Virus record (IMG/VR): IMGVR_UViG_3300033121_001217
DNA length: 20,139 bases
Reading direction: 5' to 3' (one strand)
DNA from: a virus
The stretch's first letter is position 1. Each line of letters begins with the position of its first letter. The position numbers and the translations under genes are program-made. The notes under the pieces are model-generated. The model worked only from the letters and a program-made list of their open reading frames with translations. It had not been told where the DNA came from and did no database searches. Of this stretch, positions 3,628-7,512 are shown piece by piece.

Positions 3628-4134
3628 TTAATATTCGTAATAATCTGAATCATTGTCATTTCCTGTTTCAATATAAGAATCCGTATTGAATAAAAACCTC
3701 TTTAAAGAATGTTTGTTCTCAAACATCTCGATATTCGAACCTTCGTAACTTGCGGATTGATGGTCAATATATGCCCATGTGTTTTTACCATCGGCATAGT
3801 CGGTGTTGATGTTCCATTCAATTTCTTCAACACCGATGGTTTCTTTAATAACCTCTTCTAACATGGCAAGCCACTTTTCCCCACGTTCATCCTTATATTG
3901 AATCAAATAATAAGACTGTAGGTAAGCAAAAATCAACTTGGAACCGAAATCTGAATATTTTTCTCGTTCCCAACCAAATTCAGTATGACCAAGTTTGCCA
4001 TCAACAACCAATGTAGTCATGCCAGCCGGCTCATATATCTTACGAAGTTCATACGATTCATCTTTATCGTTATGACTGATAACGATGAAACTGCTTGAAC
4101 TACTATTGCTAACAAATCCACTTCTAATTTTCAT
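3628..4134 (-). CDS. Tag-family protein 1. It has the N-terminus MKIRSGFVSNSSSSSF followed by a unique 150-aa domain.
   Basis: The N-terminal 16 residues are shared with eight other ORFs in this window. A Shine-Dalgarno-like site, agagga, lies 7 nt upstream of the start. Confidence 0.8.
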   Translation of the reverse strand: MKIRSGFVSNSSSSSFIVISHNDKDESYELRKIYEPAGMTTLVVDGKLGHTEFGWEREKYSDFGSKLIFAYLQSYYLIQYKDERGEKWLAMLEEVIKETIGVEEIEWNINTDYADGKNTWAYIDHQSASYEGSNIEMFENKHSLKRFLFNTDSYIETGNDNDSDYYEY

Positions 4135-4267
4135 TGATATCCTCTTCTATGTTTACTCGGATGTCATCTATCTTTGCAACTATTCCGTAATCTCCACAAT
4201 ACAATTTAACGTTGTATTTCTTTAAAAGAAGTTTGAGTTCTTTTAAAAATTCGTGAAAGTTTTTCAT
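4125..4267 (-). CDS. Small hypothetical ORF of 46 aa.
   Basis: I translated it by hand as MKNFHEFLKELKLLLKKYNVKLYCGDYGIVAKIDDIRVNIEEDINEN. It overlaps the start of tag-family gene 1 by about 10 nt. It is too short to appear in the ORF track. Confidence 0.3.
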
Positions 4268-4269
4268 AA

Positions 4270-4389
4270 TTAAACTGCCCACGGTTTATCAGGAAACTCA
4301 CCAGTAGCCGATTCAGGACTAATGTGAATTTCCTTATACAAAGGACACTCACGGTTAAGTTCAAACAAACGCTTACGCCAGTTGTTCAT
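4270..4389 (-). pseudogene. Duplicated remnant of the C-terminus of the radical-SAM gene, 39 aa long. This is probably a footprint of homing-endonuclease insertion.
   Basis: The hand translation MNNWRKRLFELNRECPLYKEIHISPE... matches the last residues of the 5356..6450 radical-SAM protein, NWRKRLFGLSRECPIYPEIRI, at 13 of 17 positions. The codons differ, so the DNA itself has diverged. Confidence 0.5.
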
Positions 4390-4428
4390 AGAACATTAAC
4401 ACCCTTCATTGATAAAGTCAACAACACT

Positions 4429-5307
4429 TTAGACATGTTTACATCTAAATCCTTTATATTGTTTATATCGACCATTGGCACAACATACCATGTTTCCGTT
4501 ATTAAGACCATATTGCCTACAAAACTCTCTCAGTCCTTTTATTTTTTCTTCGTGTCCATCGGGGAATGTTACGATGTATTCTTTTTGTGCTTTTATATTA
4601 GAAACCCCAAAAAGAGGGTTATTTTTTCCCCTGTATTTTTCCGGATTATTTTTAACTGCTTTAAAAAAAGGATTATTTTCACCTACGATGTTGTTAATTT
4701 TCCAATTTTCTTTTTCTTCTTTTGAAAGTTTATTTATCCAACACCGTTCTTTTCTTTCACGTTTAGATAATTTTTTTTGATAATTGTTATCTCCTTTAAA
4801 ATTAGATACCCATTTTTCATAATCATCATCTGACATTTTATTAGTGAAATGGTTCTCTCCTTTTAAATTTGGGTTGTTAAAATTTGGATTTCTACATCCA
4901 ATTCTATTTTTTTTCAACCACAATTCTTTTTTACGTTTAGACATACGGTTTAAATAATGATATTTTCCGGAAGATCCAAAATTATTATCACCGCCTCTTG
5001 TTAGATTATATCCATTTTCTCCATCAGGAGCATATGTCTTAAACTGTTTTATGTAAAAAATTTCTTTGTCATTTAATTCCGGAGTATTACATACTTCTAT
5101 AATTTCCCATAAAAAACTTTCTATTCCATATTTTCTAATTGCTCTATGAAATAGATAATTGTATTGACTGTGGTTTTTTCTGAAAGAGCTTTTCTTGTGT
5201 GAATGTATCCTTTTTTCGAGAATGTCTATTGTTTGCCCTATATAAGATTTGTTGTTAACAACGTTTGTTGCTTTATAAATTATACCAAATTTAGGTTTAT
5301 TATTCAT
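4429..5307 (-). mobile_element. GIY-YIG homing endonuclease with NUMOD3-type DNA-binding repeats, of the T4 Seg / I-TevI type. The likely start is the internal Met, MNNKPKFGIIYKA...
   Basis: The catalytic motifs are GIIYKATN...YIGQT, RIHSHK and YNLTRGG. Repeated NPNF, NPLFG and GENHF motifs are NUMOD-like. The ORF-track extension MIRVLLLG... to 5346 is probably spurious. Confidence 0.8.
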
Positions 5308-5355
5308 GTAAATAAATAGTAAACCTAAGAGCAAAACACGTATCAAAGATTGATA

Positions 5356-6450
5356 TTATATTCTTATCTCGGGATAAATTGGGCATTCCCGAGACAATCC
5401 AAAAAGACGTTTTCTCCAATTCACGGATTTTTCATGATTCCAATCGTCTTTCAAAAAATCGTTAATTTTTAAAATATCAATTGGTTCCTCTTTATCCTCT
5501 CCAAAACTACATGGATACGAAATTCCGTCCGTATTACAATACCAACTAAAAAGTTTCGATTCGCACCGTTCACAACAATTTAGAATGTTTTCCTTAATCT
5601 CATTAGTTATTTTAGTGGAATTGGTGATGGCCAATTCTGTTTTTGGACTACTACACGAATCAAACCCGTATCTGATGTTATTTTCCATACAATACTCTAC
5701 CAACTTAACATAAGCATCTGTCGGCAAAACATCAAATGCCTGTCCTCTGTTTTTTGGCTTCAATCCCAAAAAGACGATGGCATTCAATTGTTCAAGTCTT
5801 GAATCGTTTTGTATAGCATTACAAACTTCATATGCCTTCTCAATAGATTTATTATGAATGACATAATGAATGTTTATCTGTTTTCCGCCTCTGGAAATAA
5901 TTCTGTGAATCAGATCATAAGCATTTTCTTCCCTCGGCGGAACAACTGAGATAGCCATTGCTCCACATAGTTTAACTAACTTATCAATTTGTTCATCGGT
6001 TAACGGATCCGATCCATTAATTGTGACATTAGGAACGATATCATTATTTCTACAGTGTTGAAAAATATCAAAGATTTCAGGATGCGATCCGATAGAAGTT
6101 ATGCCGAAAGCAATTTGACAAATAAACAAATTCCCATCAATTCTAGGAAATTGATTCAAGATTTTCTTAAATGTATCCAACGACATGTTATCTGGAGTTC
6201 CTGGTTTGGAGTTATTTCCTTTATAACACATCGGACATGAAACTGGACACCCACCGCCGTCCTTGCCGCTAGCAGAAATTTCAATATCGGCAATTTCAGG
6301 CCCAAAAGGAGACCAAGTTGGGTCATCCGATTCGGTAGCCCCCCATCTCATAAAATGACCATTAAAAATATTGAAATTGTAATTGTAATTCTTGCTTCGG
6401 AATTTTTTAATTCCGTTTTCGATTATCAAAGTTGGAGCATTGTTCATCAT
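5356..6450 (-). CDS. Radical-SAM enzyme with a C-terminal Cys-rich auxiliary domain of the SPASM or twitch type.
   Basis: The motif CPVSCPMCY has the CxxxCxxC spacing followed by an aromatic residue. The C-terminus carries a second cysteine cluster, NCCERCES...YCNTDGISYPC. The protein is 364 aa. Confidence 0.7.
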   Translation of the reverse strand: MMNNAPTLIIENGIKKFRSKNYNYNFNIFNGHFMRWGATESDDPTWSPFGPEIADIEISASGKDGGGCPVSCPMCYKGNNSKPGTPDNMSLDTFKKILNQFPRIDGNLFICQIAFGITSIGSHPEIFDIFQHCRNNDIVPNVTINGSDPLTDEQIDKLVKLCGAMAISVVPPREENAYDLIHRIISRGGKQINIHYVIHNKSIEKAYEVCNAIQNDSRLEQLNAIVFLGLKPKNRGQAFDVLPTDAYVKLVEYCMENNIRYGFDSCSSPKTELAITNSTKITNEIKENILNCCERCESKLFSWYCNTDGISYPCSFGEDKEEPIDILKINDFLKDDWNHEKSVNWRKRLFGLSRECPIYPEIRI

Positions 6451-6521
6451 GCGATTGCGTACGTGTGTTAATGTTTACGAGGAATACTCTATCACCTTTT
6501 TATATCGGTGTCAAGTGCTAA

Positions 6522-7442
6522 TCAAAAAAACGGATTTTCTTTGTCAGTTGGAACGGAACAATATTCAGGAACTTTGTATTCCCCCTCTTTTCTAAAAACC
6601 AACACAAATTCATGAATTTTGCTTGTATATCTTTTTGCTGCCGCCTTCTCCAATTGCATTGCTGAAAACGGTGTTATGTTTTCCATAACAATTAGATCGT
6701 GATTAGAAAAACCGGCTTTTTTAAAACTTCTTATTGTATCTGCGTGGAATGACAATAACTCACAATCTTTTCTGAAATCGGCAACAACCCAAATACAAAA
6801 TGTTCCAGGTTTCAATACTCTAAAACAACTGACTGCTGTTTTGTCTACTGACTCTATAAACTTATCATAGTCATCTATATCCGATAACTGTCCATCTACA
6901 CTTTCATACTTTTCTATATTAAAATAAGGTGGACATGTAAACACTAAATCAGCAAAATCATTAGGAGTGTTTTCCATCTTAGTGCCGTCCCCCAAATACA
7001 ATGTTGGCGAATCTATTAATTTTCCTTGGTTATTCAAACTCCGAAAATGTTTTAAAGCACGGTTATATGTGTTTGGTGTAATTTCATATCCAAAATATTG
7101 TCTTTTCAGAAAAGTAGTTACAACCGCTCTTGTGACTCTGCCAGCAAATGGATCTACTACCTTCGCTCCTTTTAACGACCAGTATTTTACAATGTTTTCA
7201 GCAAGACCTGCATGAAACTCGGACATCTTGGCAACACCATCTTTGTTTCTGAGGCCATATCCTTTTCGTTTATCAATTTCGTCGTCATAAAGATAAGCAA
7301 TCGACTCCCATTCGGCCTTTGACTCTTTAGTTGGTTTAAATATAGAAAACGGTTTGAATCCGAATTGATCTATTACAGATTTGTCTGATCGAAATGGCAA
7401 AAGTTGTTTGTATTCTTGTTGATTGCCGGCGGGTTTTACCAT
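6522..7442 (-). CDS. DNA methyltransferase, amino-methyltransferase of the N6-adenine or N4-cytosine type.
   Basis: Motif I is VVDPFAGRVTRAV. Motif IV is DLVFTCPPYF, about 65 residues downstream, which is the gamma-class motif order. Confidence 0.7.
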   Translation of the reverse strand: MVKPAGNQQEYKQLLPFRSDKSVIDQFGFKPFSIFKPTKESKAEWESIAYLYDDEIDKRKGYGLRNKDGVAKMSEFHAGLAENIVKYWSLKGAKVVDPFAGRVTRAVVTTFLKRQYFGYEITPNTYNRALKHFRSLNNQGKLIDSPTLYLGDGTKMENTPNDFADLVFTCPPYFNIEKYESVDGQLSDIDDYDKFIESVDKTAVSCFRVLKPGTFCIWVVADFRKDCELLSFHADTIRSFKKAGFSNHDLIVMENITPFSAMQLEKAAAKRYTSKIHEFVLVFRKEGEYKVPEYCSVPTDKENPFF

Positions 7443-7462
7443 GTTAATATTTTATGTTAAAT

Positions 7463-7501
7463 AAACACCGATGACAACTTTTTACATTGTCATCGGTGTT
7501 T
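7463..7501. terminator. Perfect 15-bp inverted repeat with a 9-nt loop, lying between the ATPase stop and the methyltransferase start.
   Basis: The left arm aaacaccgatgacaa at 7463-7477 pairs with the right arm ttgtcatcggtgttt at 7487-7501. Neither strand has a strong U-tract, so this may be an attenuator, a processing site or an operator. Confidence 0.5.
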
Positions 7502-7512
7502 ATAGTAATATT

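Follow-up and report, generated by a model that had tools for sequence, protein, structure and literature searches.

Why should a phage-like genome carry, directly behind a homing endonuclease gene, a second and differently spelled copy of the end of the gene in front of it? This question is raised by the IMG/VR virus record IMGVR_UViG_3300033121_001217, a stretch of 20,139 nucleotides (nt) that we refer to as the window. Reading along its minus strand, a complete radical-SAM (rSAM) gene (5356-6450; 364 amino acids (aa), ending in ...NWRKRLFGLSRECPIYPEIRI and a stop) is followed by a free-standing GIY-YIG homing endonuclease gene (4429-5307; 292 aa), a 39-nt spacer of ambiguous origin (4390-4428), and an open reading frame (ORF) of 39 codons (4270-4389), which encodes MNNWRKRLFELNRECPLYKEIHISPESATGEFPDKPWAV before its stop. 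We find that the 39-codon ORF is the 3' end of a displaced rSAM allele, hereafter allele B, and not an independent gene. An earlier note on this DNA had described its product as a match to the rSAM tail written in different codons, and the comparison bears this out: 16 of the last 21 rSAM residues are shared, against 36 of the 63 nt beneath them, and the 21 aligned codons comprise four that are identical, 12 that are synonymous but different, and five that are non-synonymous. This match within the window has a tblastn E-value of 1.8e-8, and no other 21-aa stretch in a six-frame translation of the window reaches 9 of 21.

The second allele was recognised among 340 homologues returned by a search with the rSAM protein, which fall into two C-terminal types. 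Allele A, the type of the complete window gene, ends in ...RECPIYPEIRI, and allele B in ...RECPLYKEIHI(S/D)P..ATG.FPDKPWAV, in each case directly before the stop codon. Protein identity between the window gene and a representative of allele B (P0042) is approximately 56%, and the DNA of the two alleles is approximately 67% identical. Over its full length, the window protein is 96% identical to P0001 and 79% identical to both P0002 and P0003, all of which have the same C-terminus and are encoded in endonuclease-free contigs. Its translation holds the CxxxCxxC motif as CPVSCPMC and matches phrog_7293 (E 5e-74); the score for Pfam Radical_SAM (PF04055), 22.5 bits, is below the 29.5-bit cut-off, and many of the homologues carry precomputed PF04055 or SPASM matches.

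The small ORF is of type B. Its last 33 residues are the exact C-terminus of P0042, which is carried by the relative L001, while P0087, the type of allele B carried by L009, L010, and L011, contains ...EPMNNWRKRLFELNRECPLYKEIHI...; the ATG of the small ORF is thus a Met codon from the interior of allele B (...EPMNNWRK... in L009). Among the allele-B genomes recovered, L009 and L001 are nearest to the remnant, with identity across 4262-4391 at 114 of 130 nt (88%) and 111 of 130 nt, respectively, against 57% DNA identity to the resident rSAM end. At the protein level the remnant combines the two without a mismatch, as a chimera that equals L009 over residues 1-23 and L001 over residues 24-39, and the alignment with both genomes leaves two substitutions that are unique to the remnant, both synonymous. 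Exact-pattern scans of IMG/VR and the JGI metagenomes for the remnant sequence found nothing. From the remnant through the downstream genes the window is colinear with L009 (3435-4207), and allele-B homology ends sharply at base 4391, the displaced 3' end occupying 4270-4391, that is, the 39-codon ORF and 2 nt more. An intact frame with an ATG start and no decay might be expected of a conserved small gene in its own right, or of a tandem duplication in situ that later diverged, but we consider either origin highly improbable: the start codon is borrowed from within allele B, DNA identity to this foreign allele (85-88%) far exceeds that to the resident end, and no separate copy exists in any endonuclease-free relative. 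The earlier note had named such a copy in relatives as what would refute its reading; in L001 and L009-L011 the sequence is instead the intact 3' end of rSAM-B. Both origins were rejected given the allele-B match and the colinearity with L009, and an appropriate annotation for the 39-codon ORF would be that of a gene fragment, not of a gene.

The origin of the 39-nt spacer is less clear-cut. It reads SVVDFINEGC*CS, in frame with both the endonuclease and the remnant, and two sources are conceivable, namely rSAM-B sequence that has decayed (compare VTDFQKEVWLSEP) and the decayed tail of an endonuclease (..D..I..W in this family). Ungapped identity to L009 amounts to just 12 of 49 positions over 4392-4440, which includes the spacer.

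Relatives of the window preserve several states of the locus. The earlier note had predicted that those lacking the endonuclease would show the rSAM gene followed directly by the gene at 3628-4134 (minus strand; 168 aa), and this holds in L001 (rSAM-B, 4-nt gap), L005 (rSAM-A, 3-nt gap), and L008 (rSAM-A, 59-nt gap), the latter two without a remnant; in L009, a gap of 141 nt between rSAM-B and the homologue of this gene holds a homologue of the 47-aa ORF that lies behind the remnant in the window. L009 is colinear with window positions 4391-3628 at 80.7% identity, and the 168-aa product is 54-80% identical to those of the rSAM-following genes in L001, L002, L005, L008, and L009. The arrangement of the window, with rSAM-A, GIY-YIG endonuclease, allele-B remnant, and 47-aa ORF, recurs in L012 and L013, such that the endonuclease is polymorphic in its presence, occurring in these two and missing from L001, L005, L008, and L009. 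A further state is found in L002-L004. Their rSAM-A, the closest relative of the window's (91.5% identical in DNA), is succeeded by a 276-aa endonuclease of an unrelated, HNH type (EKHHYIPKS...EEHIVAH; phrog_655, E 3e-31; 4741-5571 in L002 and likewise in L003 and L004), then by the homologue of the 168-aa gene, with no remnant. Homology between the window and these three genomes stops exactly at the rSAM stop codon, and the GIY-YIG and HNH families appear to compete for one site after rSAM. Among GenBank phages, megablast with the locus found no match, and tblastn with the rSAM protein gave only matches of <40% identity, these in T4-like phages of Klebsiella and Enterobacter.

The allele-B rSAM of L009 (265-3556) is itself a fractured gene. 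Its N-terminal part ends in ...CPMTCAF and runs into the N-half of an intein (Hint, Intein_splicing), after which come a 270-aa ORF that matches HNH weakly, below threshold, and a C-terminal part that begins ...VLVHN|CYKGN, the third Cys of CxxxCxxC being the +1 residue of the intein. A LAGLIDADG gene lies just upstream. The fractured gene resembles an arrangement described previously (PMC2677866), and P0105 appears to be a version of rSAM with a contiguous intein.

The endonuclease gene appears to encode a functional homing enzyme. Although its longest ORF (4429-5346) begins at a TTG, the ATG at 5307 is the likely start, giving a protein identical to the called P0121. The product scores 30.9 bits against Pfam GIY-YIG (PF01541; cut-off 22.6 bits) and matches the PHROGs homing endonuclease family phrog_7168 (E 6e-24). 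In an alignment with the I-TevI catalytic domain (1mk0/1ln0), residues Y11, Y22, R33, H37, E82, and N101 correspond to the conserved Y6, Y17, R27, H31, E75, and N90 of I-TevI, and these catalytic positions are invariant across 11 homologues of the endonuclease. At the C-terminus, residues 232-290 align to the DNA-binding end of I-HmuI (1u3e; E 0.0098), and an I-HmuI_NUMOD-like match of 21 bits lies below the 27-bit Pfam cut-off; the NUMOD3 domain is recorded solely for more distant relatives. The gene has a GC content of 26-28%, as against 33-39% in its flanks. Given its intact catalytic residues, its low GC, and the lack of an intron around it, the endonuclease looks active.

Introns encode many GIY-YIG endonucleases, and several homologues of this one bear the JGI label 'group I intron endonuclease', so the gene could be imagined within a group I intron or similar self-splicing element, with the small ORF as the true last rSAM exon. 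This too is very unlikely. An Rfam scan found no family at gathering threshold, nor any match even at E <= 1 over 4100-5700, and on this basis the endonuclease is free-standing rather than intron-borne. It forms its own ORF between the remnant and a complete upstream gene, with 48 nt from the rSAM stop to its ATG, and the C-terminus and stop of rSAM-A are as in the uninterrupted genes of L005 and L008. The two rSAM ends, moreover, overlap in content, the last 21 codons being repeated, and do not abut as exons would. An intron-split rSAM was thus rejected for want of a ribozyme match and for its complete upstream ORF.

Sequestration of the start site by RNA structure is a feature of T4 endonuclease genes, where it acts on translation. 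Here, a 17-bp hairpin (5291-5328, minus strand; an inverted repeat, 88% complementary) holds the endonuclease ATG (5305-5307) in its 3' arm. Its predicted fold of -12.9 kcal/mol (z = -2.45) was equalled by 4 of 200 shuffled sequences, and it shows no evident conservation in L014 or L015, which carry homologues of the endonuclease. With this modest support, and by analogy with T4, the hairpin may act as a translational brake.

Is the position of the endonuclease behind rSAM a peculiarity of the window, or a property of its family? Of homologues at least 41% identical to the endonuclease, we considered those whose surroundings were read, and all of them (L014, L015, L016, L017/L018, L019/L020, and L021) adjoin the 3' end of an rSAM gene, in either orientation, the rSAM partners being 31-62% identical to that of the window. 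The endonuclease of L014 is 59% identical to that of the window, that of L016 53%, and that of L015 51%; in L015, 3 nt separate the gene from a preceding rSAM with 55% identity to the window's, and the pair aligns colinearly with the window (64% DNA identity). At greater distance, the endonuclease of L017/L018 (49%) accompanies an rSAM only 35% identical, and those of L019/L020 (43%) and of L021 (41%), an IMG/VR record, are convergent with rSAM. Other IMG/VR matches to the endonuclease profile are far weaker or confined to the N-terminal domain, and are mostly distant GIY-YIG proteins; among these, only L080 holds an rSAM homologue, approximately 1 kb from the endonuclease match. An association that holds in either orientation is more indicative of a DNA site than of co-expression, and suggests that this endonuclease family specialises on rSAM 3' ends, which, judged by position, are its putative homing site, as the earlier note had proposed for the window.

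L016 provides a second case of a stranded tail. Its rSAM ends in ...RECPLYKEIHINPSEAKGSFPEKM and a stop, after which comes the endonuclease, whose last 22 codons (PLYSEIHIDPTKATRTFPNKV, then stop) are the displaced rSAM tail of another allele, which continues the reading frame of a truncated endonuclease tail. Compared with that of the window, this remnant starts 15 codons deeper in the rSAM tail; it has Arg where long B-type tails have Gly, which hints at decay. Two different breakpoints in two diverged members of the family argue that the arrangement is a recurrent product of invading new alleles.

In L014 (3840-6945), the rSAM gene is also split, near residue 185, by the gene for a 279-aa HNH/NUMOD3 endonuclease related to that of L002, and the GIY-YIG homologue P0122 lies directly after the split gene, which places two endonuclease genes in or beside a single host gene.

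How recently the arrangement has moved can be gauged from L012 and L013. The window shares with them a cassette (4105-6517, minus strand) in which it is 99.9% identical to L012 and 99.7% to L013. From the rSAM start at 6450 to 4105, where the L012 contig ends, the window and L012 agree at all 2,346 nt, and the three sole L012 differences in the cassette lie at 6485-6515. The major vault protein (MVP)-like gene beside the cassette, by comparison, is 94.8% identical to its counterpart in L012 (5.2% divergence). This disparity agrees with the recent exchange with a related phage that had been claimed from the window alone, and supports lateral spread of the cassette in recent time. In comparisons with L002, L012, and L013 the left edge of the cassette falls at 6514-6517, where it coincides with a sigma-70-like promoter match from a promoter scan (6486-6514, minus strand; TTGACA-17-TAGAGT with TG), which is a match to consensus only. 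A search of the two cassette edges for direct repeats or shared sequence revealed none beyond chance. The same comparison bears on the possibility that two co-occurring rSAM alleles were joined during metagenomic assembly. The window probably derives from a metagenome, and relatives with both alleles do occur together in related samples, but such a chimera is scarcely conceivable, as the identical endonuclease/remnant junction is found in L012 (SRR12487046) and L013 (SRR12487013), assembled from other samples in different runs, and does not lie at sequence common to both alleles; the recurrence of the junction in two independent assemblies was the basis for its rejection.

Taken with the allelic states of the relatives, we think it probable that a GIY-YIG endonuclease specialised on the rSAM 3' end entered an allele-B genome together with its linked rSAM-A, which is presumably immune to cleavage. 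During mixed infection, the enzyme would have cut an allele B that lacked the endonuclease, within its 3' region or close to it, and the break would have been repaired from the endonuclease-bearing genome, with a copied tract from approximately 6517 through rSAM-A and the endonuclease gene. Since alleles A and B share only approximately 67% of their DNA, repair could not have been resolved within the gene, and the whole gene would have been replaced. Homologous homing leaves no duplicate, and the joint downstream of the endonuclease gene would therefore have formed without homology, stranding at least the last 39 codons of allele B behind the endonuclease as a non-functional piece that has yet to decay. 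Were this so, the longest remnant would place the cut no further downstream than the equivalent of base 4391, and as allele A differs at most codons there, it would be immune. We infer the cleavage and its position, the immunity of allele A, and the repair pathway from these comparisons, the placement of the cut being suggested by analogy with the T4 Seg and Mob enzymes discussed below. The earlier note's account of flanking donor DNA copied in with the endonuclease survives in part: an allele was swapped along with the endonuclease, but the small ORF belongs to the resident, displaced allele B and not to the donor. Similarly, the rSAM 3' end did come in, as part of incoming allele A, but so did the rest of the gene, from the promoter-like site to the stop.

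Several considerations weigh against this explanation. The window, L012, and L013 share one cassette and thus represent a single event, which together with L016 makes just two independent events. Classical homologous homing makes no duplicate, such that an additional, non-homologous joint must be assumed. The cleavage and activity of the endonuclease are predictions. Allele A needs no GIY-YIG endonuclease, being endonuclease-free in L005 and L008 and followed by the HNH gene in the same slot in L002. Finally, the left edge of the cassette lies at a promoter-like site and a hypervariable island, where modular recombination independent of any endonuclease could move the block. If so, allele A may have replaced allele B by illegitimate or modular recombination between co-infecting phages, with the endonuclease as a passenger or a later insertion. 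The adjoining island differs in every relative, nine paralogues in the window have near-identical 5' ends that could mediate shuffling, and rSAM-A is itself a mosaic in comparison with L002 (84-99% identity). We nonetheless judge a passenger endonuclease to be unlikely, as its gene is placed precisely where the incoming gene meets the displaced fragment, its independent homologue in L016 has the same arrangement with a different breakpoint, and the close family members examined are all at rSAM 3' ends.

A broader proposal, which we advance tentatively and consider doubtful, extends the entry of endonuclease and linked rSAM-A to the family at large. The family might constitute a whole-allele replacement drive in phages, its cargo a complete, cleavage-immune rSAM allele with promoter, and the stranded tail a downstream homology arm that is partly renewed in each recipient. 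Renewal of the tail from successive recipients would explain why the remnant is an undecayed chimera of L009-like and L001-like sequence. On the same proposal, rSAM may be contested by at least five kinds of selfish element, namely the GIY-YIG endonuclease, the HNH endonuclease in its two placements, a split intein with an HNH gene, a contiguous intein, and a neighbouring LAGLIDADG gene.

The arrangement has its closest counterpart in fungal mitochondria, where mobile endonuclease ORFs (mORFs) leave behind displaced native C-termini in Allomyces macrogynus atp6, in atp6, atp9, cox2, and nad3 of Glomus sp., in Rhizopus atp9, and in Mortierella cox2 (PMC3630166). The order is the same, consisting of a gene, its incoming C-terminus, a GIY-YIG or LAGLIDADG ORF, and the displaced native C-terminus (PMC3630166), and there too it is the displaced copy that agrees with relatives lacking the endonuclease, the expressed one being divergent in DNA but similar in protein. 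Some fungal cases, like L016, fuse the endonuclease ORF to a gene fragment in frame, although in L016 the endonuclease is fused to the downstream remnant and not to the upstream gene. Unlike the mORFs, the present case concerns a phage host, and the incoming DNA would comprise a whole gene with its promoter region, leaving no hybrid of native core and foreign tail; the window endonuclease is a separate ORF beginning beyond the rSAM stop and out of phase with the upstream gene. A targeted full-text search for phage cases returned only fungal mitochondrial C-terminal duplications, a result that cannot show absence.

Among phages, the nearest likeness is to T4, where the GIY-YIG Seg and HNH Mob enzymes SegF, SegG, SegE, and MobE are known for intronless homing, co-conversion, and marker exclusion (PMC2988022, PMC2790892), and where free-standing endonucleases cleave away from the insertion site and co-convert flanking sequence (PMC2988022). 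As in T4, a free-standing GIY-YIG gene is lodged between genes of a large phage, is polymorphic in its presence, and has flanks that are swept along with it; the occupation of the same slot by another endonuclease family in a close relative, and the hairpin over the start codon, are further points in common. SegH and Hef, for instance, replace mobC and mobE. The T4 examples differ, however, in leaving no displaced gene fragment, whereas here alleles A and B would be too divergent for recombination within the gene, and the whole allele would have been swapped by way of one non-homologous joint; activity and cleavage of the present enzyme are also predictions. Exchange boundaries marked by nuclease genes, or 'HEG islands', are described from ICP1-like and other phages (PMC10448857). 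In the window, too, a nuclease gene borders a block that contrasts sharply in identity with its flanks, and cargo moves with the endonuclease, but here the cargo is the neighbouring gene in an alternative allele, and the event is recorded by the remnant of the allele that was replaced.

The surroundings of the cassette have features of their own. Downstream of the remnant and ahead of the 168-aa gene lies the 47-aa ORF (MKNFHEFLKELK...; 4124-4267, minus strand), which L012 and L013 share with the window and whose homologue follows the intact rSAM-B of L009; it is absent from L001, L002, and L005, and has no family match in Pfam or PHROGs. The sequence ATGAAAA begins both this inserted ORF and the 168-aa gene that follows, which suggests that the ORF was inserted or deleted via recombination between short repeats. 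Upstream, the island between rSAM and the MVP-like gene (6522-9153 in the window) appears to have been swapped in, and is unrelated to that of L012. The window encodes here a 546-aa HATPase_c_3 protein together with a DNA methylase of N6/N4 type (306 aa), L012 (2725-8017) a 794-aa HD/Cas3-like helicase together with a 942-aa protein whose Cas12/C2c1 RuvC-like matches are weak, and L008 (3467-6307) a 946-aa protein, and the interval is empty in L002; this position next to rSAM may be a hotspot for defence or counter-defence genes. The MVP-like gene itself is an 835-aa ORF (9365-11872), the homologues of which in L002, L008, and L012 carry MVP_shoulder (E 7e-22) and Vault_3 domains, and major vault protein domains are unusual on a phage-like contig. 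The nine paralogues (89-197 aa; minus strand) start at 4134, 12402, 12998, 13344, 14218, 14612, 15355, 16138, and 16414. They share a near-identical N-terminus, MK(I/V)R(S/N)GFVSNSSSSSF, together with the corresponding 5' DNA, and diverge over the remainder; phrog_7397 matches only this N-terminus, and contigs L012 and L013 both break at the repeat.

On the explanation favoured here, the locus is a sequence-level record of a homing endonuclease moving a whole alternative allele between phage lineages, in which the overwritten allele is still legible. The arrangement was known from fungal mitochondria, and this locus is a clear phage example. With two divergent alleles, two unrelated endonucleases for one slot, and versions of the gene split by inteins or endonucleases, the rSAM gene and its 3' end form a tractable system, which would allow tests of target choice, of immunity by codon divergence, and of competition among selfish elements.

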